Shown one piece after another: positions 5,167-64,000 of a DNA stretch of 64,000 nucleotides; the stretch's first letter is position 1, and each line of letters begins with the position of its first letter. Made by a program: the position numbers and the translations under genes. The DNA comes from an uncultured Lentimicrobiaceae bacterium. GTDB taxonomy: Bacteria > Bacteroidota > Bacteroidia > Bacteroidales > WCHB1-69. The DNA lies in assembly GCA_964598505.1 (NCBI GenBank), contig CAZRCF010000001.1, forward strand, positions 150,543 to 214,542, given 5' to 3'. Under the pieces are notes generated by a model that did no database searches, was not told the DNA's origin, and worked only from the letters and a program-made list of their open reading frames with translations.

Positions 5167-5384
5167 AATTTTACTGAAATTTTAAGAGAATTCATAAGAG
5201 TTTCTTTTTTTCTTTTTTCTAATTCTTCTTTCGATGGAGATCCAGCAATTCCACCTAGAGGAGCATTACTAGCAAAAATATCAACAATCATTAATCCAGT
5301 TTCATCCATAAACTTTTGCATTGCTTCTTTAATGGTTGATTCTAATTGTTCTTTCTTTTCTAATAATTCATTCCTTACTGTCAT
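5163..5384 (-). CDS. hypothetical coiled-coil protein (73 aa; start moved to Met30 of track ORF)
   Basis: ATG at 5384 is preceded by GAGGGAGAA. The longer track ORF has no SD. Confidence 0.45.
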   Translation of the reverse strand: MTVRNELLEKKEQLESTIKEAMQKFMDETGLMIVDIFASNAPLGGIAGSPSKEELEKRKKETLMNSLKISVKL

Positions 5385-5541
5385 CAGTTTCTCCCTCAAG
5401 ATATTCTTCAATTGTATGAACAATAATACTTTCTCCATTAATTTCTTCTGTATCTGAGAACATCTCTTCAAATAAACAAATCAATTCTTTTATTGTCAAT
5501 GTATCTTCTGTTTCAACTTCAAGTACGATTTTGTGTATCAT
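5368..5541 (-). CDS. small acidic hypothetical protein (57 aa)
   Basis: ATGA overlap with the thyX stop suggests translational coupling. Hand translation gives MIHKIVLEVETED... Confidence 0.4.
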   Translation of the reverse strand: MIHKIVLEVETEDTLTIKELICLFEEMFSDTEEINGESIIVHTIEEYLEGETDDSKE

Positions 5542-6428: not shown

Positions 6429-6438
6429 TCATTTCCCC

Positions 6439-6747
6439 CTATTGGATTATTTTTGGCGGTACATTAACATCTAATCCCGTTGTTAATTTAATATATGTTT
6501 TTTGAATTTCCGGTGGAGCATCAGTCATAGCAATTATAAACTTATCAACTGCAAGTTCTTTGATTGATTTAGCATCAAACGGAGCTAATATCGGAATAAT
6601 CATAGACTCAAGTTGTTGTGGATTAGTTCGAGATGGTTGAAAAATAATAGAATACCCTTCTGTTATAAATTGTCCAGTGTCTCGTTGTTCAAGTTTACCA
6701 ACTACTAGATCTCCTGAAATAATTTTACAAATTACGATTTGATACAT
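6439..6747 (-). CDS. hypothetical protein (102 aa)
   Basis: ORF track; packed array. Confidence 0.5.
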   Translation of the reverse strand: MYQIVICKIISGDLVVGKLEQRDTGQFITEGYSIIFQPSRTNPQQLESMIIPILAPFDAKSIKELAVDKFIIAMTDAPPEIQKTYIKLTTGLDVNVPPKIIQ

Positions 6748-6983
6748 GATTTATTTACCGTCCTTTTTAATTTTTTAATAGCTGAATTTTTAGCTATTTC
6801 AAGATCCAAATGATACATATCTTCCTGCATATTAAGAATACAAACTCTACATAAATTAGCGGATACTGAATAATAACTTGAACCATATTTAAATGTTAAA
6901 CAAGTTGTATTCTTCTCTATTTTTCTGCCGCATCCAAGACAACTTCTTGTGCCTTTAGTAATATCTATAATAAATTTTTTCAT
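6732..6983 (-). CDS. zinc-finger-like hypothetical protein (83 aa)
   Basis: CLGCGRK ... CRVC Cys pairs. Confidence 0.5.
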   Translation of the reverse strand: MKKFIIDITKGTRSCLGCGRKIEKNTTCLTFKYGSSYYSVSANLCRVCILNMQEDMYHLDLEIAKNSAIKKLKRTVNKSCIKS

Positions 6984-6988
6984 TTTTA

Positions 6989-7315
6989 TTACTCCCTTTC
7001 CATAGCTTCAATTAATCTTAATGTATCTATAATATTTTCAATATCATGAAGATTTCTAAATACATCATTCTTTATATGATCTAAAATATATTTTCTTCTT
7101 TTTCCTTTAATAATTTGTACTTCTTCTAAACCATCAATGGTTCCAATCAACAGCCCTCCATAAGCATCTTGAAAATCAAGATGAGTATAATTAACCTTAG
7201 TGTGACCAGTGGTTGCAGTAACCAAGCAAATGTCTTCATATTTACGATTATTCGCTCCTTTTCTGTTTATATTTATAACCATTCCAGGTTTTATCTTTGA
7301 CGCTTTTATTTTCAT
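6989..7315 (-). CDS. hypothetical protein (108 aa)
   Basis: ORF track; AGGAGAT SD upstream. Confidence 0.55.
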   Translation of the reverse strand: MKIKASKIKPGMVININRKGANNRKYEDICLVTATTGHTKVNYTHLDFQDAYGGLLIGTIDGLEEVQIIKGKRRKYILDHIKNDVFRNLHDIENIIDTLRLIEAMERE

Positions 7316-7330
7316 TTTTAATCTCCTACT

Positions 7331-7504
7331 TTAATCCCATTTACGATGACGTTTGTGACACGGGCTGCAATTAGTAATATCTTTATCACAATTCATTAAA
7401 TTTTCTATACGACATTCACAAGGTATACGTTGATTTGTATCGTTACATAATCCGTAATATTCGTTCTTTTTTAAATATTCAAGTATGATTTCTTTTACTG
7501 TCAT
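7331..7504 (-). CDS. small Cys-rich hypothetical protein (57 aa)
   Basis: Hand translation gives MTVKEIILEYLKKNEYYGLCND...CSPCHKRHRKWD. AGGAG lies upstream inside the end of queC. Confidence 0.4.
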   Translation of the reverse strand: MTVKEIILEYLKKNEYYGLCNDTNQRIPCECRIENLMNCDKDITNCSPCHKRHRKWD

Positions 7505-7507
7505 TAT

Positions 7508-8182
7508 TTACTCCTGATATTTAATCGGATCTTCTTTTCCAATATTTTTGAAAGCCTCTAGTCGTTCTGTACAAGAACCACATTTACCACAAGATAATTC
7601 ATTACTTGTATAACAAGTTCTTGTGAATTCATATGGAACAGGTTTATCAAAAGCATACCCCATTTTAAGAATACCTGTTTTATCTAAGGTTTGAACAGGT
7701 GTTTTAATGAAAATTTTTCCATCACTACTCCTATAAATTGCTTCACCCATAGCATCAATAAATCCTTGTCGGCAATCTGGGTATATTTCATGATCTCCCA
7801 TATGTGTTCCAACAGCAACAATATTTGCTCCAACTGATTCAGCATAACCTGCCATAATTGAAATGAAAATACTATTTCTTCCTGGAACAACTGTTAATGA
7901 CATATTTGAATCGTTATAATGTCCTTCTGGAATTTCTCCTTGACCATCTAAAAGATTGGATTTAAAGAGCTCGCCAATGAAATTAAGATGAACAATTTTT
8001 AATTCTTCAGTTTCATAATAGTCAGCTAATACTATAGCAGATAGCATTTCCTTATCATTGTGCTTACTACCATAATGAAAAAATAACGGATAAATCTTAT
8101 ATCCTTTATTAGCATAATATCCTAGAACTGTTGCTGAATCCATTCCTCCGCTTAAACCCATTACTACTGTGTTGTTTGACAT
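7508..8182 (-). CDS. queC: 7-cyano-7-deazaguanine synthase QueC
   Basis: PP-loop SGGMDS, plus a C-terminal CGKCGSC zinc motif. Start set at Met14, which has AGGAGG upstream. Confidence 0.88.
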   Translation of the reverse strand: MSNNTVVMGLSGGMDSATVLGYYANKGYKIYPLFFHYGSKHNDKEMLSAIVLADYYETEELKIVHLNFIGELFKSNLLDGQGEIPEGHYNDSNMSLTVVPGRNSIFISIMAGYAESVGANIVAVGTHMGDHEIYPDCRQGFIDAMGEAIYRSSDGKIFIKTPVQTLDKTGILKMGYAFDKPVPYEFTRTCYTSNELSCGKCGSCTERLEAFKNIGKEDPIKYQE

Positions 8183-8406
8183 ATTTCCTCCTTTTGTTTT
8201 GGTTGTTCTACTCTTGGACATAAATCATTTTTAAAATATTCAAATAATTCATTTATTAAATCTTGTTGATTATTATAAAGCAATACAGCCATTGTTGCTA
8301 AAATTGCAGCAATTCTATTATCTCCTAATTCTTTAGCAATATCTAATCCATGTGTTAAATTATTAAATAACTGTTCTGTGAGTAGCATTTCTTTTACGGT
8401 TTCCAT
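8164..8406 (-). CDS. hypothetical protein (80 aa)
   Basis: ORF track. First gene downstream of promoter-like copy 2. Confidence 0.5.
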   Translation of the reverse strand: METVKEMLLTEQLFNNLTHGLDIAKELGDNRIAAILATMAVLLYNNQQDLINELFEYFKNDLCPRVEQPKQKEEICQTTQ

Positions 8407-8442
8407 CTTTTACATCCTTTTTATTAAAATAAAATTTAGATA

Positions 8443-8477
8443 CATATATTATTTCTATATGAAATTTAACAATATTA
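8443..8477 (-). promoter_or_regulatory. promoter-like element with ATATAGAAAT block (copy 2)
   Basis: Minus strand reads ATATAGAAAT-AA-TATATG. The core is at 8451-8460, directly downstream of the terminator at 8480-8516. Confidence 0.55.
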
Positions 8478-8479
8478 AA

Positions 8480-8516
8480 AAATCGGCAAGAGCTTTAAGT
8501 TAGCTCTTGCCGATTT
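8480..8516 (-). terminator. intrinsic terminator; CGGCAAGAGCT palindromic element variant
   Basis: 15-bp stem AAATCGGCAAGAGCT/AGCTCTTGCCGATTT with T-run on the minus strand. Confidence 0.7.
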
Positions 8517-8536
8517 AAAATGTTAATAAATTCTTT

Positions 8537-9040
8537 TTACATTTTACCTTCGTAACACTCGATTGTTTTTTCTAATTTCAAAACGTAATCAATTACAATA
8601 AGATAATTTTCTGTTATTTGTTTAATTGTCCATCCACTAACGTCGGTCGAGTTGGAGACGGGCAATACTTCTCCGTCGGCTTTTGTACTACCGGCATCGA
8701 GCAGGCCACGAGAATTAAAGAAATAAGTAATATCACTAATAGTTTTTTCATCTTTTTCTCCTATGCATTTTGTTGCTTTTATTTTATTAACAGAAATCAT
8801 TATACTAGCTGCATCATTTGTTATTTTCTGTTGTTCCTTTTGTGCCTTTTTTGCCGCTAAAATTGTTGATTTATAATCCGAAATTTGTCCGGTTAAATCA
8901 ACATTAGTTACAGTTAGCGCATTAATTTGTCCTGCTTGTTTAACTACTGTGTTTCGTTGCCATAAATATAATCCCGAAACAATTATAACTACAACAGCTA
9001 AAATCATTAATATAATATTCTTTGGATTAAGATACCACAT
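8537..9040 (-). CDS. N-terminally anchored coiled-coil protein, possible Rz-like i-spanin
   Basis: Single N-terminal TM (IILMILAVVVIIVSGLYLW) followed by a coiled-coil-like region. Lies immediately downstream of the endolysin. Confidence 0.4.
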   Translation of the reverse strand: MWYLNPKNIILMILAVVVIIVSGLYLWQRNTVVKQAGQINALTVTNVDLTGQISDYKSTILAAKKAQKEQQKITNDAASIMISVNKIKATKCIGEKDEKTISDITYFFNSRGLLDAGSTKADGEVLPVSNSTDVSGWTIKQITENYLIVIDYVLKLEKTIECYEGKM

Positions 9041-9509: not shown

Positions 9510-9597
9510 TGGCGGAGAGAACAGGATTTGAACCTGTGAATCTTTCGATTGCCAGTTTTCAAGACTGGTTCCATAAGCCAAACTCGGACACCTCTCC
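9510..9597 (-). tRNA. tRNA-Ser (anticodon UGA), type II with long variable arm, encoded CCA
   Basis: Hand-folded cloverleaf. Acceptor GGAGAGG/TCTCTCC, anticodon arm CCAGT-CTTGAAA-ACTGG, variable stem AATC-GAAA-GATT, T arm CAGG-TTCAAAT-CCTG. Confidence 0.9.
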
Positions 9598-14919: not shown

Positions 14920-17900
14920 TTAAGTTATATTCAATCCCATACCTAAAATATATAAATTGAATATGTCTTTTGTTCCACCAGTTTTTGAGGATTCAGGAAT
15001 AGAAGGCATATCTCCTGTTTCCATAATAGAATTATACATTTCTCTTTTTACTCGATGTTCATCACTTCTTGGACCAAGTAATTCAGATATAATATTATTA
15101 GCATTATATGTAAGAAATGAATAAATATCAAGACCCGCAATACTTTGTCCACCACCAACATTTTTTCCTTGGGTTGGTTGACGAGTAAGTCCTGTAAATC
15201 TACCTGTTCCTCTTACATTAGAATACACATCTGAATAATGCTCCAAAAACATATAATATGATATACCTACAGGAACAGGAACGTCTGTCCAACGATCAAT
15301 TTCTGGAATATATACCTTTTCTTCTAAAGGAATCTTTAAGAATTCCGCCGCTGAACGAATGCTCTTAAAATCAATATCTTCAAAAGGTTCTACAATACAA
15401 TATAAATTAATTTTATCATCTTTTATAGCTTGTCTTAATTTATTTCCAGAATAACTATTGACATTTTCTGCAACTTGTTTTGCTATCTTTTTTGGTCCAA
15501 CAATATTGTATAAATCAATAATAAACTTAGCTAATTTATCATTAGGAATTTTTGGATCTTCTGCCATTATTTCGAGCTTTTTATTTGCATTGAAGAATAT
15601 TTTTCCAAGGTATAATTCCTTTATCATTGCTACATTCTTGCGTCCCAAAATTGAAATTGGGGAGATAAAGATATCTATCTTTTCTGTAAATTCTCCTTTC
15701 GGAGCTGGATCAAGAAGTTTACTAAGAACTCCTTTTGCTCCAAAACGATTACTTAGCTTATCACCTATATTAACACTTTTTAATCTCTTAATATAATAAA
15801 CAATTCTAGAACCTACAAAAATATTTCCTTTAAGTTTATGATCACCAATGTTTATAAAACTTAAATCCATATTATCTGTAATTGAAAGTTGTTTATCTTT
15901 ATCTTTTATAACGGATGCGAGCTTTGCAATAACTTGTTTTTGTTCTTTTACAAGATTTGAATGAAATGACATAAGTTGTTTATCAGCAGAATTCTTATTA
16001 TTAATGAATACTTTGATATCAACAATTTCACCCTCTGGAGCTAATAATTTGATACTTTTAGAACCCGTTGAGAAAATGTCTTTTGGGGATTCAGAATCAT
16101 CATCTTCTATATCTAAATTTGTCGAATCAAGATATTCATCCAAACTATCTTCATATGAAAATTCAACTAATATATCCCCACTTTTAACATGTTTACCTTT
16201 TTCTATTTCAAGATTTATAATTTTTGTATTTGGGGGAATAATAGCTTGAACTTCTTCAACACTATCTGTCAGTGTTTGATCTGCAAGTTCTTTTGAAATA
16301 ATATAACTATCTTCATGATTCAATCCCATATAATTAAATAAAGCTATATTAATATTTTTACCGGCACAATATGTTCCAGCTTGATTAAAATTCTTTGTAA
16401 AAGCAATAGGTTGATTTGCTTTAAATTTCTCATCAATTCCAAGAGTATTCATTTCAAGAGAAATGTAAGATCCTCTTTTAGTTCTACTCATTCTTGGAAC
16501 TATATCAAAAATATCAATTGTTCCATCTTTATATTTCACAGTAAGTGTTTTATTTTTATCGACATCTGTGATGATTCCATCTTGTTTTGCTCTATGTATA
16601 AATCTTGGTGATGCTAATTGAGGAACAATAAATTCTGCACCAGTACAAACTAATGGTTGTTCAGAATCACTAATTGGAGTGGTTTGATTTGAATGTGTTC
16701 TTGCAAGAGTAAGACGATCACTATCGACTTGATTTTGAAATGGTGTTAAAGATTCATCTAACGCCAGTGTTTGCCATCCAGATAATTGTGTAATATCTTT
16801 AGCTCCATATGAACCATATTTATTTATTATGACCGGGGTAAGCGTGTGATGTGTAGTAAGTCCGACATCCACATACTCTGGCGTACTGACTGCTCCCATG
16901 GTACCATATTGGCTAGGGTGAATATTACGATGTTCTTTTTTGAAACTTTTTCTTGAAGGTACACCGCCTTTACCACCTTTAGTTACTCTACTACTTAACA
17001 TTATTTCCGTTATAGGAGCAACTGGCTCTGTATTCTGAAGAACCCCAGCATCAGTTAATAAACTATTAATAATATAATCTGGGTCTAAAAATACAGCAGC
17101 TTGAGGATCACCTTCTGTAATACGTTTACGATAAGTATTGTGAGAAAGTTTAATTACTTTATAAACTATATTAAGAATAATTTCACTTAATCTTGTTCTA
17201 TAAATTTTAAGATCAGATAAAGAATTCATTTGTTTATTTAGTAATTGATCAACTGCAACTTTTGAAGAAAGCTCTGTTAAATTTGTTGGCATATTTTCAA
17301 ATTGTAAAAGCTCTTTGGTAATTGGATCAACAAAATTCTCACTATTTAATCTAAGAAGAATAATTGATCTTGTACCATATGTTTGAATAATATAATTATA
17401 GATTTCCTGAGGATCATTTAAATCTTTAATTGGTTCCTTTAGTTTAATAGTTGATAATGCATTAACTATTACTCTTTGTTTTAAATTTTCAGGAGTAATC
17501 TTTAAAAATTTGCCATCGGCTTGAGCTACATAAAAAACTCCAGGTTCTGGAGTATCAGTTTCAACAACTTCATAATTTATACCATAATCATTAAGAGTTG
17601 CTAGAAGACCTTTTTGACTCCAAAGATAAAGTATCAATGGCATTTTTATTGCTCCCATATAAATCCATATATATGGAAGAGCTTTTTTAGTTTTTGTTAA
17701 ATTGTCAACCGGATTAGCTGTATGAATTTTATCTAATATAGTATCAAATAAAAACTCATATTTATTTTGTTTTAATAATTCTTTAGTTTCTACATCTTGT
17801 AATCTACCGGATTCAGTATCTGTAGTTATATTTTTATCTTTAGAACTATAAACGCTCTCGCCGGTAAAATAAATAATACTACCATCATTAAATTCACATG

Positions 17901-19614
17901 AGTTTTCGTCTCGTTTTTTGATAAGTTTTGGATATCTAATTTCAGCATATTTTGTAATTTCTGTAAGATCTGTTGGATTAAATTTTGAATTAGCTAATCC
18001 AACTCTTACAATACCGTAATTAGAAATCATACGAACTTCATTCTTATCTGTTTTTGTTACCGGACGAAGAAACTGTTGATTACTCATTATATATGATTTT
18101 CCATGAAGTTTGAAGTATTTCTCATTGACTGGAGAAGGAACTTTTAATTCGACAACATATGGTTCTTTTTTACCACCATTCATATTTTGAAGAGTAACTT
18201 TATAATTAATAAATCTATTTGAATTATCATCTTCAACGGAAGATTCGATCTTTTTTATTTTAATTGGGTATTCAGTTCCAATGGATTCTAATGAATTAAA
18301 CAGTTTTGATACATTTTCATGAATAGCAGTTTCAAATTCAAATTTCTGACGATGTTGACCAGTTGTGTATTTTAAATCAATAATCTTACTAGGATTAATA
18401 ATATTATTTGATTCGGAAATATTTAAATCATTTTTATAATAATCAATTTGTTTTAATTTATTAAATAATAAATTTGGTTTATGAAGATACTCATCTGGAA
18501 CAATATCTGAACCTGAAATTGAATAATTAATAGCTCTCAATACTAAATCCTCAGCTTGTTCCTGATTTGGTTTAGTTTTATTATTTTCAATATATTTATT
18601 CAAAGCTATTTGAACATTAGCAACAATATCAGGATCTGTAATTTTATGAGATTTTAAAGCTTTTCTTAATTCTTCTTGATTAAGTTTAACTCGAATTCCG
18701 GAAGTATCTGGATCTTTGTCAGCTACTAGAGTTGAAGTTTGAAGTGATTTAACAATTCCAGAAATGAAAGAAGGTTCTTTATTTTCTTCAGTTGTATCTT
18801 CATTTTCTTGTTCATTTTCTGGTTTATTTATTGAACCATCTTCTGTTTCTCCTGCTATAGCATTTTCCTTAGATTTGTTAATATCTTCTATTTCCGTATT
18901 TACTTCAATATATTGTTTTAATTTTAAAAGATTAGCAACAACTAATTGAGTTTCAGATTTATCTATATCAAATATTGGAATAGTTACTTCCTGACAATCT
19001 GATATAAGACTAAATTCATCAAAGAATTTAATAGATTTTAAATCATCAGCTTTGATGAATGATCTAAGATTTAAAAAAATATTATATAATCTTCCACTCT
19101 GGTTCTTAATAAGAAATACCATTTCAACATTGTAATCTTGATTGTTTGATTTAATTTGTTTATATAATGTGGCAAGCTCTTCGAAGAGTTGTCGAACAAC
19201 AGTCTTTTCCGAATATCTTTGCATCATAAATTCTAATGCTTGGCTCCACACTGTTGCATCATAAAAATAATAATTACTTGTTTTATGAGATGTTAATATT
19301 TCTTTCTCAGATTTTTCAATTATTAAACTATTTAAAACTCGTATTTTCTTACCAATTTTTTGATCTGATATATTAGAAGATAGCTTCTTTTTGACATCGA
19401 AAAAGTGAGCTTTGCCGCTAAATTTTCTTTTACCTATTGTAAGAACTTTACTTGGACAAACAAGTCCCATACAATTTGATAATAAGAAATTAGAATTATA
19501 AATTTCTGTAGATATATCAAGATTTGTATCTGGTAACATAATAAATATTGTTTTCTTATCAACATATATTTTTGTTTTTATAACATATGCTGGATGAATT
19601 GAACTATAATTCAT
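14920..19614 (-). CDS. multisubunit RNA polymerase beta-subunit homolog, full-length fused form (1564 aa)
   Basis: Beta motifs in order: IHPSQYG..STPEYVDVGL (CPIETPEG region), TPFQNQVDSDRLTLARTHSNQ (IPFLEHDDANRALMG), NRFGAKGVLSKL (GRHGNKGV), GGGQSIAGLDIYSF (GGQRFGEMEVWAL). Confidence 0.85.
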   Translation of the reverse strand: MNYSSIHPAYVIKTKIYVDKKTIFIMLPDTNLDISTEIYNSNFLLSNCMGLVCPSKVLTIGKRKFSGKAHFFDVKKKLSSNISDQKIGKKIRVLNSLIIEKSEKEILTSHKTSNYYFYDATVWSQALEFMMQRYSEKTVVRQLFEELATLYKQIKSNNQDYNVEMVFLIKNQSGRLYNIFLNLRSFIKADDLKSIKFFDEFSLISDCQEVTIPIFDIDKSETQLVVANLLKLKQYIEVNTEIEDINKSKENAIAGETEDGSINKPENEQENEDTTEENKEPSFISGIVKSLQTSTLVADKDPDTSGIRVKLNQEELRKALKSHKITDPDIVANVQIALNKYIENNKTKPNQEQAEDLVLRAINYSISGSDIVPDEYLHKPNLLFNKLKQIDYYKNDLNISESNNIINPSKIIDLKYTTGQHRQKFEFETAIHENVSKLFNSLESIGTEYPIKIKKIESSVEDDNSNRFINYKVTLQNMNGGKKEPYVVELKVPSPVNEKYFKLHGKSYIMSNQQFLRPVTKTDKNEVRMISNYGIVRVGLANSKFNPTDLTEITKYAEIRYPKLIKKRDENSCEFNDGSIIYFTGESVYSSKDKNITTDTESGRLQDVETKELLKQNKYEFLFDTILDKIHTANPVDNLTKTKKALPYIWIYMGAIKMPLILYLWSQKGLLATLNDYGINYEVVETDTPEPGVFYVAQADGKFLKITPENLKQRVIVNALSTIKLKEPIKDLNDPQEIYNYIIQTYGTRSIILLRLNSENFVDPITKELLQFENMPTNLTELSSKVAVDQLLNKQMNSLSDLKIYRTRLSEIILNIVYKVIKLSHNTYRKRITEGDPQAAVFLDPDYIINSLLTDAGVLQNTEPVAPITEIMLSSRVTKGGKGGVPSRKSFKKEHRNIHPSQYGTMGAVSTPEYVDVGLTTHHTLTPVIINKYGSYGAKDITQLSGWQTLALDESLTPFQNQVDSDRLTLARTHSNQTTPISDSEQPLVCTGAEFIVPQLASPRFIHRAKQDGIITDVDKNKTLTVKYKDGTIDIFDIVPRMSRTKRGSYISLEMNTLGIDEKFKANQPIAFTKNFNQAGTYCAGKNINIALFNYMGLNHEDSYIISKELADQTLTDSVEEVQAIIPPNTKIINLEIEKGKHVKSGDILVEFSYEDSLDEYLDSTNLDIEDDDSESPKDIFSTGSKSIKLLAPEGEIVDIKVFINNKNSADKQLMSFHSNLVKEQKQVIAKLASVIKDKDKQLSITDNMDLSFINIGDHKLKGNIFVGSRIVYYIKRLKSVNIGDKLSNRFGAKGVLSKLLDPAPKGEFTEKIDIFISPISILGRKNVAMIKELYLGKIFFNANKKLEIMAEDPKIPNDKLAKFIIDLYNIVGPKKIAKQVAENVNSYSGNKLRQAIKDDKINLYCIVEPFEDIDFKSIRSAAEFLKIPLEEKVYIPEIDRWTDVPVPVGISYYMFLEHYSDVYSNVRGTGRFTGLTRQPTQGKNVGGGQSIAGLDIYSFLTYNANNIISELLGPRSDEHRVKREMYNSIMETGDMPSIPESSKTGGTKDIFNLYILGMGLNIT

Positions 19615-20509: not shown

Positions 20510-22288
20510 TTAATGATCTTGAGAATAACGTTCAAGAACAATTTTTTCAATAGGATCTAAAGTTGCATCACGATTATCAATTAATCCAACTTTAACAGCT
20601 CTATTAATATTTTCAAAAATAAGAGAAGATAGCCATGAAAGTATATATGGTAATTTCTTTTGACCTACAATTGTTATATTTTTGTAATTAGTTAATCTAG
20701 CTGGTATGGTTAAATCTTCACTGTCTCTAAACATATTTGAAACAATTGCTTCAATGTGTATCATATCAATTCCAGCTAATTTGTCATGAATTGTCATTGT
20801 TAATACTTCTGGATTAGTGATATATTTTGCGCCGCCCTCGAAGAGCCTATCAACTGTTCTTTCATTAAAAGTATCATCATAATAATCTTGTTTTATAATT
20901 ATTTCACCAGGTTCGTAATTCATAGTTATTATATGACCATCTTCTATGACTTCCGCTGGTTTAAATACGTCAACCATGATTGCAAAAGGTAATGTTATAA
21001 AATTAATATCTGGTGATTCACCATATTGAACAGTTAGTACTCCGATTGTTTGATATTTATCTCCACAATCAATTAATGAAATATCATTATATTCCGTATC
21101 ATCTATAGATATACTACATTGTGTTTTTGCAATTATTTCATTCTTTTTAATTTCAAGAATATTATTAAATTGCTTAATATCAATTCCAGCTTTTTTAATC
21201 ATATCAATAAAATCTACTTCTTTTGTATTTATCGAAGATGATTTGTGTCTCATTTTCATCATCGAATTTATACCAATTTGATTTGCTGCTCCACTTGCCA
21301 GTATTCCAATATTAATTGTGTTTAATGTTTTATAAAGATTGCCATAGCAAGTTGGACAAATGCCGGATTTTGAAATACAATATAATGGAGATCTTAATTT
21401 AATCTTTTTATTAATAATTTGATCTGCGGAAATTATGTTTTTAATTGAACCAGATTGTGATACATAATTTCTTTGCAAAAGAAGATCGGCAAGATCTTCA
21501 GTGATAACTAAATCAAATGTTCTTTTTGTTCCACAATCTTCGTTTTTAACATCTATCTGTAATCCTGCGTTTGCTTGAACCATTTTTCTAGTAAGATATC
21601 CTGGATGTGCTGTTAGAGCAGATCTTATATAAAAGTTTTTACGTGCTTCTGAACCTGCATTATAATAATCTATTTTTCCATAACCAGTGTTTAAACTGGT
21701 TGTAATAGGTCCAAGAAGTTTACCTTCAATATCAATTGCATAACCTTTTGCTACTAATAATGCTCCCCAATCGGAAATAGGATTTCCTTTTGTTCCAGAA
21801 GACATTATATCATTTGCTCTAAATCCTGATTCTTCGAAATATGATAATAACTCTTTTGTAAGTTTTTCAGCTTCTTTTTTAAATTCAACAGGATCAAGTT
21901 TACTTGCTGTTTTTTCAAACTCATCTCGTTTCTTAACCCATTCTGCAGGTGGAACAAACATATCGATTGTAAATGTATTTGGGGAAATACTAGCTAATTT
22001 AAAAGCTTCAGTTTGAAGTTTTGAAACAATATCTACAGCTTCTTCTGTACCATATTTATTATACATTTCAATAATAATTTTATTCATCAGGTTTTGATTA
22101 ACTGGTTCATTTACTAATGGATAATCCGCAGGCAATAATTGATTAAACCATATCCGACCAAGAGTCAGATTAACACTTTTTCCATTAGTCTTTTTTGGAT
22201 GAGAATATGATACTTTTGAAGAAAGTTTTTTCCCATCTTTAATTAAATCATATATATTGTCTGATGTTGAAATTGGTTGTGCCGACAT
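20510..22288 (-). CDS. multisubunit RNA polymerase beta-prime homolog, C-terminal module (bridge helix + trigger loop)
   Basis: SGTKGNPISDWGALLVAKGY (SGARGS..QLAGMRGL), ARKNFYIRSALTAHPGYLTRKMV (bridge helix), EDCGT, GILASGAANQIG..MKMRHKSS (trigger loop region). Confidence 0.8.
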   Translation of the reverse strand: MSAQPISTSDNIYDLIKDGKKLSSKVSYSHPKKTNGKSVNLTLGRIWFNQLLPADYPLVNEPVNQNLMNKIIIEMYNKYGTEEAVDIVSKLQTEAFKLASISPNTFTIDMFVPPAEWVKKRDEFEKTASKLDPVEFKKEAEKLTKELLSYFEESGFRANDIMSSGTKGNPISDWGALLVAKGYAIDIEGKLLGPITTSLNTGYGKIDYYNAGSEARKNFYIRSALTAHPGYLTRKMVQANAGLQIDVKNEDCGTKRTFDLVITEDLADLLLQRNYVSQSGSIKNIISADQIINKKIKLRSPLYCISKSGICPTCYGNLYKTLNTINIGILASGAANQIGINSMMKMRHKSSSINTKEVDFIDMIKKAGIDIKQFNNILEIKKNEIIAKTQCSISIDDTEYNDISLIDCGDKYQTIGVLTVQYGESPDINFITLPFAIMVDVFKPAEVIEDGHIITMNYEPGEIIIKQDYYDDTFNERTVDRLFEGGAKYITNPEVLTMTIHDKLAGIDMIHIEAIVSNMFRDSEDLTIPARLTNYKNITIVGQKKLPYILSWLSSLIFENINRAVKVGLIDNRDATLDPIEKIVLERYSQDH

Positions 22289-22690: not shown

Positions 22691-22766
22691 TGGAGCTGAT
22701 GGAGGGAGTCGAACCCCCGACAGGTTGATTACAAATCAACTACTCTTCCAACTGAGTTACATCAGC
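22691..22766 (-). tRNA. tRNA-Thr (anticodon UGU), encoded CCA
   Basis: Hand-folded 76-nt cloverleaf. Acceptor GCTGATG/CATCAGC, D arm ACTC-AGTTGGAA-GAGT, anticodon arm GTTGA-TTTGTAA-TCAAC, T arm GGGGG-TTCGACT-CCCTC. Confidence 0.88.
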
Positions 22767-22782: not shown

Positions 22783-25542
22783 TTATCCACAAGATCCTTG
22801 ATTATAACTACAATTATTACAGAAATAACATGAACCTAATCGTCTCATAGTGTTTCCGCAATTTGGGCATATTGGTCCTAAAATTTCTTTAGAATCAATT
22901 GTTTTTATTTCTTCTTTTTCGAGTAAGATTCCATTTGAATCTGAAGCTTGAATTAATCCCAATTCAATTTGATCTTCTTTTTCAAGAAATTTTAAACCGA
23001 CATATCTTGCAATATAATCTACAATACTATGGGCTATTCTAATATCAGGATTTGAAGTAAAACCATTTGGTTCAAATTTAAGATGTGATAGTTTGCGAAT
23101 TAAATCCTTTAACGGAACACCATATTGTAGGGAAATACTTATTACTGTTGCAAGTGCGTCAGCAAACCCAGATATTACAGATCCTTCTTTTGACACATTT
23201 ACGAAGACCTCGCCGAGTTTATTAGAATTCGCGTATAATCCACACGTGATGTATCCTTCACTACTTCCAATTCTAAACTTATGAGTAATAGACATTCTCT
23301 CGTCTGGGAGTTTCTTTCTTGTTAATTTAGTTGGAATTGTTTCTTTTAATTCTTCTTTTTTAGAAGAATTGTCTGTTGTTGATAATGGTTGAAAATTTTT
23401 ACTTCCATCTCTATAAATTGTAATTCCTTTTAATTCCATTTTCCAAGCTTCAATATAGAGATTATATATTTCATCAACTGTAACATCTTTTGATAAATTA
23501 ATTGTTTTACTGATTGCTCCACTTAAGAATGGTTGAACCGCTGCACACATTTTTACATGTCCCATATAATCTATACAAAGATTGTTTGTATTGGGAGTTG
23601 GTGCAGCTGTTAGAAATACTTCTCTATGTTTCCATTCTTTAAATTTTGTTATTGAATGAGGTTCTTCCCCACTTCCACTAATTAATTCATTTACTAATTC
23701 TGGAATTTCATTTTCAGAATATCCTAAATTCAATAGAGATTCTTCAACTATTGGATTGACTGTTTTTAAAGTTGCCCCATCAGATCCAGCCAATCTTTTA
23801 TATCTTATTAAACTATATTCTGGTTCAATTCCAGTAGTGATTGAATTCATTAGAAAGCTAATTGTTCCAGTTGGAGCTAATAAACTGACTTGAGCATTTC
23901 TAAATTTCTTTCTTTTAATAACTTCTTCCCAGTTGCTGGTACAGAATTTCTTTATTGTTTTTGTATAGAATTCTTCGTTATTAACTTCTTCCCAGTTGCT
24001 GGTACAGAATTTCTTTATTGTTTTTGTATAGAATTCTTCGTTATTAACTTCGAAAAATATAACATCTTTAAATAACTCTTGAACTTTATCATAATGTTGT
24101 TTTAATACTCTTTTAAAGGGTGCGTCATTGGCATCAAATCTATTAAATTCTCCAACTTTATCTGCAAGATCTGCACTTGTATTATATGCTATTCCTGTCA
24201 TAAGAGCAGTTAATCCAGCTGCAACAAATCTTCCTTCATCACTATCATATGGAAGTCCGAGCCACATTAGTAGACCACCAAGATTAGTATATCCAAGGCC
24301 AAGGTTTCTATAAGAAGCTGTTCTTAATCCTATGTCTAGACTTGGGTAACTCGATTTATCGATTAAAATATCTTGTGCAGTAATAACTGTTCTAATTACA
24401 TCTTCAAATGTTGCTATATCAAAAATAATATTATTTTCTTTATTTCTTGAAAAGAATTTTAGTAGGTTAATTGACGCTAGATTACAACTTGTGTTTGCTA
24501 ATGCCGCATATTCACCACATGGGTTGGTTGACTCAATAATACCATCATTTGATACTGTATTCCATTTATTAAAAGCATCATGAAATTGAATACCTGGATC
24601 TGCAATTTTCCAACTCATTTCCGCAATTTTTCTTAATAGAGCTTTTGCTGTATATGTTTTATATGTTGCTTTTGTTTTAACGAATTTAGTATCCCAATGT
24701 TCATCATTTATAACTTTACGCATAAACACATCAGGAATTCTAACTGATATATTTGTGTTTTGAAAATAAACTTCATCGGCAAGATCATATCCCGGTCTAT
24801 TTTTTATACCAGCTTTTCTTAAAACTGCTAATTTTTCTTCTTCATAAAGTTTACAATTAATGAATTCTTCAATATCAGGATGGTTCATATTTAGACAAGC
24901 TAATTTTGCACTTCGTCTTAATGTGCCTCCAGATTTGACTACGCCCGCGAGGGTATCGTGAGCTTTAAGAAAACTGATTGGTCCACTTGCTGTGCCTCCA
25001 CCACTAACTGCTTCCTTAGAACTTCTTAAATTACTTAAATTAGATCCAGCTCCAGAACCTTTCTTAAAAATTTGAGCTTCAAGTTTTCCAAGTTCTGTAA
25101 TTGAATCCATATTATCTTGAACACCAAGAATAAAACAAGCACTTGTTTGAGGTAATTCCTGAACCCCACAGTTGAAATAAACTGGTGAATTAAAAGCAAA
25201 ATATCTGTTCATTTGATAATATTTTAACTTATAGTTAAAATCCCATTTTTCATGATCGGATTCATCCGGATATTTATCAGAAGAATGTTTTCCGAAATAT
25301 TCTTGTTCTACTCCCCAATTAGAAATTGTATCACTAACTCTGTCAATCATTTGTTTAAGAGATGTTTCTTTATATTTTGAATTATTACAGAGATATCTGC
25401 TAGCGACTACTGCAGCAGCGTTATCATCAAAATCTTTAGGAAATTCAATTTTATCACTAAAAACTATATCTCCATTAGGAGATTTAATTTCTACATTTTT
25501 AATTTCAAATTCTATGTCTTTATAAGGATCTTTTGGGTTCAC
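22783..25542 (-). CDS. nrdJ: class II (adenosylcobalamin-dependent) ribonucleotide reductase NrdJ with C-terminal zinc ribbon
   Basis: TNPCGE active-site motif, RNAQVSLLAPTGTISFL, and a C-terminal CPNCG...CYFCNNC. GTG start with GGAGG 8 nt upstream. Confidence 0.88.
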   Translation of the reverse strand: MNPKDPYKDIEFEIKNVEIKSPNGDIVFSDKIEFPKDFDDNAAAVVASRYLCNNSKYKETSLKQMIDRVSDTISNWGVEQEYFGKHSSDKYPDESDHEKWDFNYKLKYYQMNRYFAFNSPVYFNCGVQELPQTSACFILGVQDNMDSITELGKLEAQIFKKGSGAGSNLSNLRSSKEAVSGGGTASGPISFLKAHDTLAGVVKSGGTLRRSAKLACLNMNHPDIEEFINCKLYEEEKLAVLRKAGIKNRPGYDLADEVYFQNTNISVRIPDVFMRKVINDEHWDTKFVKTKATYKTYTAKALLRKIAEMSWKIADPGIQFHDAFNKWNTVSNDGIIESTNPCGEYAALANTSCNLASINLLKFFSRNKENNIIFDIATFEDVIRTVITAQDILIDKSSYPSLDIGLRTASYRNLGLGYTNLGGLLMWLGLPYDSDEGRFVAAGLTALMTGIAYNTSADLADKVGEFNRFDANDAPFKRVLKQHYDKVQELFKDVIFFEVNNEEFYTKTIKKFCTSNWEEVNNEEFYTKTIKKFCTSNWEEVIKRKKFRNAQVSLLAPTGTISFLMNSITTGIEPEYSLIRYKRLAGSDGATLKTVNPIVEESLLNLGYSENEIPELVNELISGSGEEPHSITKFKEWKHREVFLTAAPTPNTNNLCIDYMGHVKMCAAVQPFLSGAISKTINLSKDVTVDEIYNLYIEAWKMELKGITIYRDGSKNFQPLSTTDNSSKKEELKETIPTKLTRKKLPDERMSITHKFRIGSSEGYITCGLYANSNKLGEVFVNVSKEGSVISGFADALATVISISLQYGVPLKDLIRKLSHLKFEPNGFTSNPDIRIAHSIVDYIARYVGLKFLEKEDQIELGLIQASDSNGILLEKEEIKTIDSKEILGPICPNCGNTMRRLGSCYFCNNCSYNQGSCG
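23920..24045. repeat. perfect 63-bp tandem duplication (2 copies, plus 6 bp of a third) inside nrdJ
   Basis: Positions 23920-23982 and 23983-24045 are identical. In-frame, duplicating the 21 aa EVNNEEFYTKTIKKFCTSNWE. Confidence 0.95.
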
Positions 25543-50699: not shown

Positions 50700-52658
50700 T
50701 TAAGATTTCAAAAATTGAAGACTCACATCCACCACCTGTTTGGTTCGACTTTTAATCGGTCGATTTTCTGGAAGATCATATTTACCATCCACTACAAGTT
50801 GTCTAACTAAATCTTTCTTTCCAGCTGTCCAATCACTTTTTACAGATAAAATTTCTTTGACTGCTAGATCACACCCGTGTGCTAACATACTTTCTAACTC
50901 CATTTGACCAACTCTACTTCCACCACCTCTTGCTCTACCTTTGGTTGGTTGTTTAGTTATACTTTTGACACTACCAAAATCTCGAGCATTTATAATTTTA
51001 GAAACTAATTTTGATAATTTCTGAATATAAATCGGGGCACATAGGATATTTTTTAAATAAACATCTTCATCTGGAAATTGTGTTTCTAATTTTAATTTTT
51101 GTTTGATAAATTTAATCGTTTCTTTTTTAATTAAAACTGTCTCTTTATAATTGATTGTATTTTTTACTAATGTTTTTATGTCAACTTCTGCAAAAGAAGG
51201 AGATTCCACAAATAAATTTGATTGATTGATATTTTCAACAAATTGATTTCTAAATTCATCATTATCTAAATTATCAATAATTTCATTTTTGACTCTTAAA
51301 TAATATTTATCATCAATATGTTTTAAAACAGATTCGTTTAACCAAGTTATTATTTCTTTTGAATTTTCGGGATTTGTTCTAATATGTTCGTCACAATACA
51401 TAACTGATTTTCCAACTAATGCTTCCAATAGTTGCCCAAGATTCTGCCGACTAAATACACTAAAAGGATTATAAATTAAATCAATTTGTTTATTTGAAGT
51501 TGTTGCAATTGGTCGCAATTCATCTGGAAGAATCAAACTGACTATTCCTTTTGCAGCATATCTGTTTGCAATTTTGTCACCGATTACTGTTGGACAATCT
51601 TTTGATATTTCTAATTCAATAAGGTAACATAAATTATTAAGTCCTATTTCTCCTCTTGATCCTTTTGTTTTTTCAATATACATATAATATTTTTGAAGAA
51701 TATATCCAACATATTGTGAATTAAAACATTTTAGAAGATCACTTCTTGTTTGTACAACAAAAGTTCCATATTTTAAATATAATTGATCCATCATATTTTC
51801 TAATTTTTGATCGATCATTACTTGTGTTCCTAGTTTTTTGAATTTATGAATTTTGATACCTGAAATAGTACCATTTTCAACTTTTGTTTTAATTTTATCA
51901 ATTGCAAATTTACCATCTCCACAGAATCCCATATTCAATAAATCTGATAATGACATATTCTTCAATGACATTTGAACTTTATTTTTTAGATCTGAATAAT
52001 TTGCTGTCGAACTATCTCTTGGAGCAATCAAACAACATACTATATCATCCTTAATTTTTTGTCCAATTGCAGGAAAATATACATATGAATCTTGATAATC
52101 TTTATAAAATTCTTGCATTAATGTATATTCATATATCGGAATATACACTTTATCAACTTGTGAATATCTAGCTTTGTCCGCTAAACTTTCAGAAATCGTA
52201 ATAGCGTCCTCGTGATTGTATCCGAAAAATGGCATGTATGCTGTAAAAACATTATATCCATAGCTCGGAACATGACCTATGAAACAATCATAATTTGCTA
52301 AAATATCCCCTCTTTTAAATTTAGATTTATTTGGAATCACATATCTCAGTTTTGTTCCAAAAGAACCTGTTGTCTTTTTTATCGGCGGAAGACTTATATC
52401 GACAACTTTATTAAGATTTGAATATTGAACAATTAATAAATCTTGATTTTTATATAATACCTCTCCATCATCCTTAGCTAATACCACTCCCATCTTAGAG
52501 GAATTTGTTACAGTATAATAATCAGATCCAATAACATATGGAATTTCAGTATTCAAGCTTGTTAATGCTTGTTGAATTTGTTTCGCACTCATCGAAGCTC
52601 TTGTACTGTCAGTTGAGCTAAGAAATGGAATAGTATTTAAATTTACACTTACAATCAT
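50700..52658 (-). CDS. multisubunit RNA polymerase beta homolog, C-terminal module (split gene)
   Basis: Begins IVSVNLNTIPFLSSTDSTRASMSAKQIQQA ([30 protein letters not shown]). Also NRYAAKGIVS and GGGSRVGQMELESMLAHGC. Confidence 0.85.
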   Translation of the reverse strand: MIVSVNLNTIPFLSSTDSTRASMSAKQIQQALTSLNTEIPYVIGSDYYTVTNSSKMGVVLAKDDGEVLYKNQDLLIVQYSNLNKVVDISLPPIKKTTGSFGTKLRYVIPNKSKFKRGDILANYDCFIGHVPSYGYNVFTAYMPFFGYNHEDAITISESLADKARYSQVDKVYIPIYEYTLMQEFYKDYQDSYVYFPAIGQKIKDDIVCCLIAPRDSSTANYSDLKNKVQMSLKNMSLSDLLNMGFCGDGKFAIDKIKTKVENGTISGIKIHKFKKLGTQVMIDQKLENMMDQLYLKYGTFVVQTRSDLLKCFNSQYVGYILQKYYMYIEKTKGSRGEIGLNNLCYLIELEISKDCPTVIGDKIANRYAAKGIVSLILPDELRPIATTSNKQIDLIYNPFSVFSRQNLGQLLEALVGKSVMYCDEHIRTNPENSKEIITWLNESVLKHIDDKYYLRVKNEIIDNLDNDEFRNQFVENINQSNLFVESPSFAEVDIKTLVKNTINYKETVLIKKETIKFIKQKLKLETQFPDEDVYLKNILCAPIYIQKLSKLVSKIINARDFGSVKSITKQPTKGRARGGGSRVGQMELESMLAHGCDLAVKEILSVKSDWTAGKKDLVRQLVVDGKYDLPENRPIKSRTKQVVDVSLQFLKS

Positions 52659-57087: not shown

Positions 57088-57876
57088 TTAATAATTTGTC
57101 ATTATTGCTACTGCATTGTGAGCGTGAATTGATTCATCGGATTCTACACTTACTTTAAATTTCTCAACATCTTCCATTTTATCTAATTTATCATATACGG
57201 CGCGAGCTATATCTTCGACAAACATTGGACTATTGTATGCTCTTTCTGTAACTACTTTTTCATCAATTCTCTTAAGTACTGAAAATATTTCACAAGATGA
57301 AGATGATTCTGCCGCTTCAATAAGGGATTCAATCCAAATAAATGAATTCTCTTTTCCTTGAACTACCATATCAATTAATACTTTCTGATTGTGTGCTCCA
57401 TATTCAGATATTTCTTTTGAGCAAGGACATAGAGATGTTGCTAATACTTTGACACCCAATCTAAATATGAAATTGTCTTTTGTTTTAATTCCAGTAAAAG
57501 AAATATGATATGGAAGTATACCAGGTTCCTGAGAAGCTGGAGCTAACTTCTGAACAAAATATGGAAACGAATAACTTATTTCACAAGTATCCGCTTCCGC
57601 TGAAATTCTTATATTTTCTGCAATTGAACTAATTAGTTTACCATTAAGTTGTTGTCCAACAAATTTCTGTAAACCAATTATTAATCTACTCATATTTGTT
57701 CCTTTAAGATTAGCAGCGAGATCTACATAACAATCAACTTTAGCAACTGAATGTTGTACTCCTCCGTTCTTCATTGAAACAAAAATAGGAAGTTCAACAG
57801 AATTGATACCAACTCTATTGATCCTAATTTCATGTACTGGTAATGTGTATTGCATATCCGGTAAGTTTTCTGACAT
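57088..57876 (-). CDS. folE2: GTP cyclohydrolase IB (FolE2 / GCYH-IB)
   Basis: N-terminal LPDMQ, RVGIN..ELPI, and SLCPCSKEIS..GAHNQ metal-site motif. AGGAGA SD upstream. Confidence 0.85.
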   Translation of the reverse strand: MSENLPDMQYTLPVHEIRINRVGINSVELPIFVSMKNGGVQHSVAKVDCYVDLAANLKGTNMSRLIIGLQKFVGQQLNGKLISSIAENIRISAEADTCEISYSFPYFVQKLAPASQEPGILPYHISFTGIKTKDNFIFRLGVKVLATSLCPCSKEISEYGAHNQKVLIDMVVQGKENSFIWIESLIEAAESSSSCEIFSVLKRIDEKVVTERAYNSPMFVEDIARAVYDKLDKMEDVEKFKVSVESDESIHAHNAVAIMTNY

Positions 57877-61143: not shown

Positions 61144-61151
61144 ATAATCTC

Positions 61152-61939: not shown

Positions 61940-61961
61940 TTAAATTCTCCTTAAAAGTTAT

Positions 61962-62309: not shown

Positions 62310-62343
62310 TATTTGTATCTCCTACATTTTGTTGAATAAAAGT

Positions 62344-62376
62344 GACTGGAACACTATATAATTATAGTGCCCAGTC
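62344..62376 (-). terminator. intrinsic terminator downstream of beta-prime fragment
   Basis: Stem GACTGG-AA-CACTATA / TATAGTG-C-CCAGTC followed on the minus strand by ACTTTTATTC. Confidence 0.65.
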
Positions 62377-62384
62377 TAGTAATT

Positions 62385-63383
62385 TTATACTTGTCCTAAG
62401 AAAATTTTCTCATAAATTGTCAAATTCTCAAGATCGATATTATCAAGTTCCTCTAAATCCACTTTTTCAATAGTTTCTTTGTTTGGTTGATATAATAATC
62501 CAATTCGGCTAGATATAAAACTTGCCATCATTTTGTCACCAAGTTTATATGTCGGTGGCAGATCTTGCCGATATCTCCAGAATTCTTTTTTATCATAATC
62601 TGTTATAAACATGTTTGCAAATAATATTTCAACAAAGGAACTGTATAAATTTCCAACTGTTAATAAAGCAGTCATCAATTCTATATAGTAAGGTACAACT
62701 GAAGTTGTAACTGGTCCTTGTCTTAATATGGATTTAATATTGTTAACAACCGAGATTACATCCTGATTGTAGACTATATGATGATCTTCACCATATATAA
62801 GAGTTTTACCTTTGACTTCTTTTAATCCATATACTTGTTGTGTAGATGAAGAAACTATTAATTGAATTGGAAATTGATCTGTATCGAATTCTAATGTAGT
62901 TTCCTCTTGATTATTAATAATATCTGTTTTCACATTTATTAAATGTTCTTCAAAAAATTTAACAATTTCAGAATCAACTGGTAGAGTTGCCCGCCCAGAC
63001 TCGTGAAAAGTTCTCAATGTTAGCTGCGTTAGCCGCTCTGTTATTAATTGCCCAGCTACAATACCAGCATATTTCGTTGTTAATCTTTTTGCACCAAAAC
63101 ACTTGTTGCAAATTTTGAAATTATGATTCACACAAGTCATCGGGGAACGAACACAAATCTTTTTATTTATATAGCTCTTTGCCGTTATAGAATCTAATAT
63201 TTTCCAATCAGGAAATGTCTCTAATTCTTTAGGGTCACAATAATATTTTCCAATTAATGTTGAAGCATGATCCTTAGACATTACAATAAATTCTAAATGA
63301 TTGTTCGTTTCACAATCTTCGAGATCAAATTCAATCATTGACAGGGCCATTACAAGAGTACGTTCTAAATCAGAAATATTCAA
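62385..63383 (-). CDS. multisubunit RNA polymerase beta-prime homolog fragment (second half of bridge helix through trigger loop); probable downstream exon
   Basis: [25 protein letters not shown] aligns with [43 protein letters not shown] aligns with [45 protein letters not shown] is the trigger loop. The ORF opens with TTG right after an in-frame TAG and has no SD. Confidence 0.75.
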   Translation of the reverse strand: [332 protein letters not shown]

Positions 63384-64000
63384 CTAGAATCGCTATTTCT
63401 AGTTCTGTCTCAAAAGAGACAGCTGCATATTACTATGCAGCTTAGACTATATCTTCACTCTAAATTTTTAAATTGTTACATGTTTCCAGGTTTTTCCATT
63501 ATCAATACACCATATTGCAGTTACAGACGTATTAAACTGTTTCGCAATTGCATGTTGTGATATTCCATTCTTCAATAACTGTTTAATTTGTTTTACTTGT
63601 TGAATTGTAAATTTATCATGTATAATTTTTCTTTTAATATCTGATAACGATATATTTTGATTTAGTTGAGATGTTATGTGAGTCCACGCATTTCCGTTTA
63701 ATATATTTATAATAGGAATTCGAGAAATTTTATATATTTCAGTAATATGTTTTACAGATAATAATTCACCAGACCAAATTCTATTTAACATTTCTTTAAC
63801 TTGTTCATCTGTTAAGATTGAACCACCATGTCTTGATCCAATTGTATTTCTTCCTTTTTGTTTTGCGTCCTTATTATTGTCATCATATGTTCCTAAGAAC
63901 AAATGATCAGGATTACAACAAGATGGATTATCACATTTATGACACACTAATAATCCAGTTGGAATATATCCATTAAAGAACTCCCAAGAGAGTCTATGAA
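63384..64000 (-). mobile_element. candidate group I-type intron (3' part) carrying an HNH homing-endonuclease ORF, inserted in a beta-prime gene; continues beyond window
   Basis: An HNH ORF is followed by an 84-nt non-coding tail. The tail has three consecutive perfect hairpins (63384-63402, 63405-63422, 63422-63441) and ends ...CTAG directly at the start of the beta-prime reading frame. Confidence 0.45.
63468..64000 (-). CDS. HNH homing endonuclease (HNH_3-type with C-terminal helix-turn-helix-like repeats), 5' end outside window
   Basis: The reading frame is open to the window edge: ..HRLSWEFFNGYIPTGLLVCHKCDNPSCCNPDHLFLGT, the classic HNH_3 motif. The GTG in the ORF track is internal. Confidence 0.8.
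   Translation of the reverse strand, partial: HRLSWEFFNGYIPTGLLVCHKCDNPSCCNPDHLFLGTYDDNNKDAKQKGRNTIGSRHGGSILTDEQVKEMLNRIWSGELLSVKHITEIYKISRIPIINILNGNAWTHITSQLNQNISLSDIKRKIIHDKFTIQQVKQIKQLLKNGISQHAIAKQFNTSVTAIWCIDNGKTWKHVTI

Follow-up and report, generated by a model that had tools for sequence, protein, structure and literature searches.

A predicted group I intron with an HNH endonuclease gene in the bridge-helix codons of a jumbo-phage RNA polymerase gene

In this article, I will discuss an interrupted RNA polymerase (RNAP) gene at the far end of a 64,000-nt stretch of metagenomic DNA (contig CAZRCF010000001.1, positions 150,543 to 214,542; hereafter the window, meaning this stretch at its full length). 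The gene encodes beta'C, the C-terminal half of the beta-prime subunit, resembling that of the non-virion RNAP (nvRNAP) of jumbo phages, and judging from the sequence it is very probable that a mobile group I intron with an HNH endonuclease interrupts it inside the bridge-helix codons, with splicing as the predicted outcome. Excision is predicted to yield a single beta'C polypeptide of 673 aa whose bridge helix is intact. Since the window edge cuts the element, its missing 5' part was supplied by a 205-kb ENA metagenome contig (L001), which was retrieved together with a 97-kb JGI contig from a second sample (L002) through an exact-protein look-up with a neighbouring 115-aa gene. The window and L001 overlap over 12,039 nt with 0 mismatches, and position x of L001 converts to position 72310 − x on the minus strand of the window; L002 differs from L001 at 7 positions, 0 of them within the element, and the intron sequence is thus identical in the second sample. 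What can be observed directly is the anatomy of the sequence, the ribozyme's homology and covariation, and a joined product that exactly regains the protein seen in homologues; the coordinates of the features involved are collected in Table 1.

The two exons and the predicted splicing product

The initial annotation of the window, made by a model from the letters and their open reading frames (ORFs), had singled out a 332-aa ORF that opens with TTG after an in-frame TAG and has no Shine–Dalgarno (SD) sequence, and inspection of the sequence by eye agrees, with no GGAG-like SD before either the TTG or Met12 of exon 2. The same ORF had been read as covering only the later part of the bridge helix, and this also holds: exon 2 alone matches the Pfam family RNA_pol_Rpb1_5 only from profile position 31 (31-134; E 8.6e-10, 38.9 bits), therefore the ORF begins in the middle of the bridge helix and the first part is missing, while exon 2 encodes the second bridge-helix part, the trigger loop and everything through to the C-terminus. 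The first half had been expected upstream of the HNH ORF, and it is present there in an ORF of 351 aa (L001 6868..7923), which past the bridge-helix half continues for six read-through codons (LINSSL) and then stops. The exon boundary itself had to be moved from the TTG at 63383 to 63370, the true first base of exon 2, which is 13 nt downstream of the initial T of that codon; the residues NISD at the start of the 332-aa ORF are encoded by the intron and lie outside the protein. The opening bases AT of exon 2 finish a Tyr codon whose first base is the last base of exon 1, and the intron thus sits in the bridge-helix codons, after the Gly and before the second base of that Tyr codon (SSG↓YLER, the arrow marking the insertion point here and below). 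Gene callers annotate the locus as a 351-aa ORF, a 321-aa ORF and a separate HNH endonuclease.

Joining the exons in silico (AGT GGG T↓AT TTA GAA CGT; at the nucleotide level, a predicted ligated junction ..CAAGCAGTGGGT↓ATTTAGAACGTACT..) keeps the reading frame and gives a product of 673 aa, in which Rpb1_5 is matched from profile position 1 (1-134) at 68.4 bits versus 38.9 for exon 2 alone, and which phmmer aligns without a gap across the junction to the solved bacterial beta' chains (SGYLERTLV against SGYLTRRLV in E. coli). A search of 5.8 billion proteins returned at least 10 uninterrupted homologues of 661–674 aa, with 55–78% identity and 99–100% query coverage. SGYLERT is nearly invariant in their alignment, and the junction stretch is identical in two uninterrupted homologues, P0001 and P0003, the homologues reading HTP(S/N).. 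there. Intron-less alleles were also found at the DNA level, in the contigs L004 and L006, with the same codon context (GGN T↓AT YTN GAR), and the intron-less relative L004/L005 has the gene as a single ORF of 665 aa. Two further searches of other scope were negative: megablast of window positions 61000-64000 against 50,697 phage records gave no DNA match, and an IMG/VR protein-pattern scan using exon 2 retrieved no relatives.

The ribozyme, its endonuclease and its relatives

That a group I-like intron with a terminal G lies between the two gene halves had been proposed in the initial annotation, and the proposal has fared well, with matches to the Rfam group I intron family RF00028, a U·G pair in P1, a terminal G and a restored reading frame all in place and splicing predicted from them. 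The RF00028 scan that was suggested alongside gives no group I match on the window alone, in 3-kb E-value, whole-window gathering or whole-window E-value mode (only sub-threshold unrelated families appear), because the window includes just about the 3' third of the ribozyme, which the filters drop; with the upstream sequence added, both ribozyme halves match and flank the HNH ORF (L001 7894-8127, 39.4 bits, E 3.3e-8; L001 8767-8887, 34 bits, E 1.3e-6). At the 5' splice site, P1 pairs the exon sequence GUGGGU (L001 7898-7903) with GCUCAC of the guide, leaving a U7903·G wobble, and the full guide strand AGCUCAC (L001 7912-7918) extends this helix with its 5' A, which pairs with the first intron base, U7904. 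P10 is formed by guide UAAAU (L001 7907-7911, outside the window), which is complementary to AUUUA at the start of exon 2. P3 (UUCCUC with GGGGGA) and P7 (GACUA with UAGUC) stand in pseudoknot order, and P3 covaries, whereas P7 is invariant and consequently provides no covariation information. P4 and P5 can also be identified, as can a long P6, and the hairpins P7.1 and P7.2 lie between P7 and the 3' strand of P3, from which I infer an IA-like architecture under the Michel–Westhof scheme. J8/7 and the 3' strand of P7 together make up the conserved catalytic-core motif GAAGAUAUAGUC, which does not vary across the five introns aligned.

Similarly, the 84-nt spacer between the HNH ORF and the 332-aa ORF (63384..63467) does contain the three consecutive perfect hairpins described in the initial annotation, of 8, 6 and 8 bp, now recognizable as P9, P9.1 and P9.2, but its first ~20 nt are the 3' strand of P8, J8/7 and the 3' strand of P7. 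Its minimum free energy (MFE) is -30.5 kcal/mol (z = -3.8), with 0 of 200 shuffles equally stable, and the unconstrained MFE fold of the ORF-deleted precursor yields P1, P3–P6, P7.1, P7.2, P8, P9, P9.1 and P9.2. The last bases of P9.2 overlap the TTG previously taken as a start codon, and an 11-nt tail follows that ends in the terminal G; the G at 63384, initially put forward as the splice-site G, is accordingly replaced by the one at 63371, 12 nt into the ORF.

The HNH ORF, which had been noticed as an HNH_3 gene running out of the window, was identified as such from its in-window part alone (Pfam HNH_3, E 1.3e-13, with a C-terminal HTH_7); it is in the same frame as exon 2, with stops between the two. 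The full protein matches HNH_3 at E 2.3e-14 (residues 51-94) and HTH_7 at E 3.1e-6 (residues 186-212), and belongs to PHROG 59, 'HNH endonuclease' (E 5.8e-39). In contrast to exon 2, it has an SD sequence, AGGAGG at L001 8138-8143, 12 nt before its ATG. Compared with the PDB sequences, I-HmuI included, the protein gave no match at E ≤ 1, and a search of IMG/VR found two relatives only, with 42–46% identity. The 42%-identical one (L131 1224..4790; IMGVR_UViG_3300029288_003026) lies between the halves of a class II ribonucleotide reductase (RNR), split in the active-site region (STNP↓..GGE), which is typical homing-endonuclease behaviour. Rfam found no group I intron at E ≤ 0.001 in either of the loci of these relatives, and the L131 element may be either an intron of divergent sequence or a genuine split of the gene.

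A further view of the ribozyme lineage comes from a phage-like contig binned as Caldatribacteriota (L007; GCA_023229115.1, JALNZW010000014.1), in which the beta'C gene (5001..8686) has four group I introns without an ORF, all above the Rfam gathering score. They are inserted in bridge-helix and trigger-loop codons, after KSIQD, YLER, ITER and LRT, and the site of intron 2 (YLER↓T) is 11 nt downstream of the site of the present intron. In each, a U·G pair marks the 5' splice site, the last base is a terminal G (..AAUG in all four) and the guide matches the intron's own exon, and deleting all four leaves a perfect beta'C ORF. They align with the ORF-deleted present intron over the whole core, with P8 as a short hairpin where the HNH ORF sits here, and intron 4, in the trigger loop (LRT↓F), has a long P6 and a P9.2 sequence in common with the present intron and retains, as a remnant, part of the AT-rich stretch that leads up to the HNH ORF here. 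RNAalifold, run on these five introns, four of them from one genome, reports 55 pairs, 21 of which show compensatory changes on both sides, in P3, P5, P6, P7.1, P7.2, P8, P9 and P9.2. Beyond this gene, the core resembles, at the nucleotide level, group I introns of 236 deposited phage genomes, among them introns of capsid and DNA polymerase genes and 'Intron_gpI' features annotated in K-like phages of Staphylococcus. At least 120 IMG/VR contigs contain a conserved 18-mer of this core. A metagenome scan with the guide-sequence pattern gave 0 matches, and the one match to a pattern of exon end plus intron start (L133) was dismissed as chance, an unrelated bacterial ORF without group I or RNAP features.

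Truncated homologues that were inspected stop at sites such as TRKG, ITER and LRT, and none at SSG. By individual protein, P0018, P0027, P0030, P0035 and P0056 end at GQ(L/T)(I/V)(T/V)ER, P0020, P0025, P0032 and P0089 at LTQL(T/V)(L/M)R(T/V), and P0091 at GTRKG. The recurrence of these few conserved points of the trigger loop and bridge helix suggests further intron-containing alleles and at least six insertion sites in the gene family, with truncation at contig ends possible for some of the proteins.

The same L007 contig has other insertions in this region. Its protein P0081 (5001..6569) contains an in-frame insertion of ~190 aa (residues ~60-250) inside the catalytic N-x-D-x-DGD↓T, which starts with Cys (CAYCNV..), ends ..HGIFLYD before the Thr, and looks, by its sequence, like a mini-intein whose C-terminal Asp is non-canonical. 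P0056 opens with the C-terminal part of a P0081-like insertion, and P0004, P0005, P0006 and P0027 start right after the N-x-D-x-DGD motif, which may be another insertion site. Also, a HEARO RNA (RF02033, 99.7 bits) directly upstream of an RRXRR-domain ORF (L007 10548..11298) places an IscB/OMEGA-type element beside the phage RNAP region.

Table 1. Features of the interrupted beta'C gene, of the related introns and of the further RNAP genes; positions refer to the window unless a contig is named
Feature	Position	Strand	Details
ORF with TTG opening	62385..63383	-	332 aa; directly after in-frame TAG
Exon 2 of beta'C gene (nvRNAP-like)	62385..63370	-	Stop codon 62385-62387 included; from Pfam, homologue alignment and splice-site logic
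Exon 1 of beta'C gene	L001 6868..7903		NADFDGD motif (Pfam Rpb1_2) and first bridge-helix half
Predicted intron, whole	L001 7904..8939		1,036 nt; from Rfam RF00028 and alignment with four ORF-less homologues
Predicted intron, 3' part in window	63371..64000	-	630 nt; remaining 5' 406 nt would be 64001..64406
HNH homing endonuclease ORF, part in window	63468..64000	-	C-terminal 176 codons and stop
HNH ORF, full	L001 8156..8842		228 aa; entirely within P8 loop
P8 3' strand	63458..63465 (L001 8845-8852)	-	AUUUAGAG; pairs with CUCUAAAU at L001 8060-8067
J8/7	63450-63457	-	UGAAGAUA, containing invariant GAAGAUA; directly before P7 3' strand
P7 3' strand	63445-63449	-	UAGUC; pairs with GACUA at L001 8015-8019, outside window
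P9 hairpin	63422..63441	-	GCUGCAUA-GUAA-UAUGCAGC; compensatory changes, alignment columns 352-369
P9.1 hairpin	63406..63421	-	UGUCUC-UUUU-GAGACA
P9.2 hairpin	63382..63404	-	AACUAGAA-AUAGCGA-UUCUAGUU; compensatory changes, alignment columns 388-410
Terminal (omega) G	63371 (L001 8939)	-	Predicted 3' splice site ..GAAUAUUUCUG↓AUUUAGAACG; intron ends ..UUUCUG
P10 partner	63366..63370	-	AUUUA; first 5 nt of exon 2, read directly
L007 intron 1	L007 6549-6797		RF00028, 87.2 bits
L007 intron 2	L007 6837-7081		RF00028, 78.8 bits
L007 intron 3	L007 7406-7642		RF00028, 84.8 bits
L007 intron 4	L007 7668-8060		RF00028, 86.8 bits
Beta-like protein of second RNAP set	14920..19614	-	1,564 aa; Rpb2_6 in C-terminal third only
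Further beta-like protein	50700..52658	-	652 aa; Rpb2_6/7

Mechanism, alternatives and precedents

It is by analogy with characterised group I introns that the steps below are drawn, and that I infer splicing, endonuclease activity and the target of the endonuclease. The beta'C gene would be transcribed as exon 1, intron and exon 2; the ribozyme would fold such that P1 brings a U·G wobble to the splice site, with exogenous guanosine attacking after that U; P10 would then align exon 2, allowing the freed 3'-OH of exon 1 to attack after the terminal G at 63371 and produce the ligated mRNA. Joining at this particular G is supported because it restores both the reading frame and the sequence of the homologues. 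The protein with the HNH_3 and HTH domains would be translated from its own ribosome-binding site in the P8 loop and would presumably nick or cut intron-less alleles in co-infecting relatives, whose recombinational repair would copy the intron in (homing).

Four points weigh against the spliced, mobile intron. Either RF00028 half-match taken singly is below the 50-bit gathering score, because a 780-nt ORF insertion splits the model; P10 consists of 5 A/U pairs only, with one unpaired A separating it from the wobble G; the 12-nt spacing between the SD sequence and the ATG of the HNH ORF exceeds that of neighbouring genes; and neither the homologues nor the metagenome scans provided a second intron at the exact site, leaving homing there without a documented population polymorphism.

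If the gene callers are taken at their word, with two separate ORFs plus an HNH ORF, then a free-standing HNH gene would have split beta'C permanently, and the two halves would be translated apart and reassemble non-covalently, the model for such genes in pieces reportedly being the nrdA gene of Aeromonas phage Aeh1, split by mobE. Exon 2 does have a TTG that could serve as a start, and also an ATG (Met12), and jumbo-phage RNAP subunits already consist of several polypeptides, as in the split between beta'N and beta'C (PMC7598289). However, neither candidate start is preceded by an SD sequence, exon 1 continues into six non-homologous intron codons before its stop, the cut would lie within the bridge helix, and the HNH ORF is flanked by a complete conserved group I ribozyme whose guide pairs with exactly those exon ends whose joining gives back the frame and the sequence of the homologues, all of which makes a permanent split very improbable. 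Now considering that splicing is a prediction only, that neither Rfam half-score reaches the gathering score and that a second beta'-like gene is present (20510..22288), one could also imagine a decayed intron that has lost splicing and left beta'C as a non-functional pseudogene, for which the paralogous RNAP set compensates. This strikes me as most improbable, since every core helix is preserved together with the invariant J8/7–P7 motif, in agreement with four homologues scoring 79–87 bits, the reading frames of both exons and of the HNH ORF are uninterrupted, the exons are 55–78% identical to intact homologues with their catalytic motifs kept, two independent samples contain the intron in identical form, and virion and non-virion RNAPs are not interchangeable in such phages (PMC7598289). 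Two other kinds of element were rejected outright. A group II intron finds no match to any group II family at E ≤ 1 in L001 7700-9100, a scan that had been proposed in the initial annotation, and the ORF encodes an HNH endonuclease and not a reverse transcriptase. An intein is contradicted by several in-frame stops in the insertion, which also lacks a Hint or intein domain.

Phage group I introns with HNH endonucleases are familiar from the DNA polymerase genes of SPO1 and SP82, with I-HmuI and I-HmuII, and group I introns also from the Twort/K-like phages of Staphylococcus. Like the present element, these have an HNH ORF in a peripheral loop and occupy conserved sites of essential genes, but their host genes encode DNA polymerase, RNR, lysin and capsid. 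The initial annotation knew of no described intron in a phage multisubunit RNAP gene, a view that is out of date, as several are published (PMC11620839; 10.1101/2020.12.14.422802; PMC12350094). One of them is that of PhiPA3 gp210, an HNH endonuclease encoded in a group I intron of the virion RNAP beta gene, which nicks the PhiKZ allele and confers a competitive advantage (Birkholz et al. 2024, PMC11620839). Both introns encode an HNH protein and are located at ultra-conserved catalytic residues of a jumbo-phage multisubunit RNAP gene; however, the PhiPA3 intron follows two conserved Asp of virion RNAP beta and the present one lies in the bridge helix of beta'C, the two phage lineages are only distantly related, and nicking and the competitive effect were demonstrated there by experiment, whereas the present element is known from sequence. 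In addition, the accessible parts of two reports describe how RNAP subunit genes contain introns in Bacillus phage AR9/PBS1 and in jumbo phages of Staphylococcus (MarsHill, Madawaska and Machias), some of these introns being group I with homing endonuclease genes (10.1101/2020.12.14.422802; PMC12350094). By tblastn these phages are the closest cultured relatives of the present beta'C gene, but the intron sites named in those parts are in other subunits or positions (nvRNAP beta'N and virion RNAP (vRNAP) beta'N). The L007 introns share both the gene and the intron lineage, with a P3–P9.2 core nearly identical to that of the present intron, and differ in having no ORF and in occupying other sites in beta'C.

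No concept is changed, since this type of element and its logic have already been published, as has its presence in multisubunit RNAP genes of phages. The bridge-helix insertion site may be unreported: a full-text literature search combining 'bridge helix', 'group I intron' and phage gave no relevant result, the intron listings in the original AR9 paper (Lavysh 2016) and in Korn 2021 being outside its reach. This site joins the catalytic-centre sites targeted by mobile introns in jumbo-phage RNAP genes, and together with L007 it marks the beta'C gene as an intron hotspot. For annotation, the true product would be a single beta'C of 673 aa, and modelling or expression of this RNAP needs the spliced sequence. 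Competition between related phages could be mediated by the HNH enzyme, should it act as PhiPA3 gp210 does. One could go further, in what I consider an unlikely extension, and picture the beta'C gene as the playground of a single group I intron lineage with at least six sites in bridge-helix and trigger-loop codons, two of them 11 nt apart and four copies in one relative, in which the HNH-encoding copy at SG↓Y would be the active 'master', spreading by homing and occasional ectopic reverse splicing and serving, as PhiPA3 gp210 does, as a weapon against intron-less co-infecting relatives.

Polymerase identity and neighbouring genes

The interrupted gene most likely encodes beta'C of the non-virion RNAP, an assignment made because of its best cultured-phage matches and the annotation of one of them: tblastn with exon 2 retrieves beta' of phiR1-37, YerA41 and the Staphylococcus jumbo phages, if weakly (E ~1e-5 to 1e-7), and the Madawaska counterpart, annotated 'non-viral RNA polymerase beta-prime subunit, C-terminal', is an ORF of 637 aa without interruption. 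A second RNAP set is encoded elsewhere in the window, where the 1,564-aa beta-like gene lies close to the paralogous beta'-like gene (20510..22288, minus strand, 592 aa), with one 181-aa ORF between them. The paralogue does contain ARKNFYIRSALTAHPGYLTRKMV, as quoted in the initial annotation, and at the equivalent site, near window position 21,600, its DNA is identical to the homing site at only 24 of 60 nt. Rfam found no group I intron in these two genes or in the further beta-like gene at 50700..52658. As a whole, the RNAP gene set fits the organisation of jumbo phages with two RNAPs, virion and non-virion.

On the other side of exon 1, a 537-nt insert (L001 6331..6867, which would be window 65443..65979) separates beta'N from beta'C, two genes that overlap by 4 nt in L004/L005. 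It holds two small overlapping ORFs of 94 aa each (L001 6346-6630 and 6587-6871), for which there was no Pfam hit above threshold (one sub-threshold Paf67, E 0.033) and no PHROG match. Rfam also identifies two tRNA genes (RF00005) on the minus strand of the window, at 9513..9597 (48.9 bits) and 22694..22766 (66.3 bits), the latter immediately downstream of a class II RNR gene (22783..25542). Downstream of the RNAP genes are genes for a GTP cyclohydrolase (GCHY-1), a cpYpsA-like protein and a CxxCxxCC protein (window 57088..57876, minus strand; L001 13684..15222 and 18308..18622), a cluster that is conserved in L004 and L007 and may be a nucleotide or DNA-modification module.

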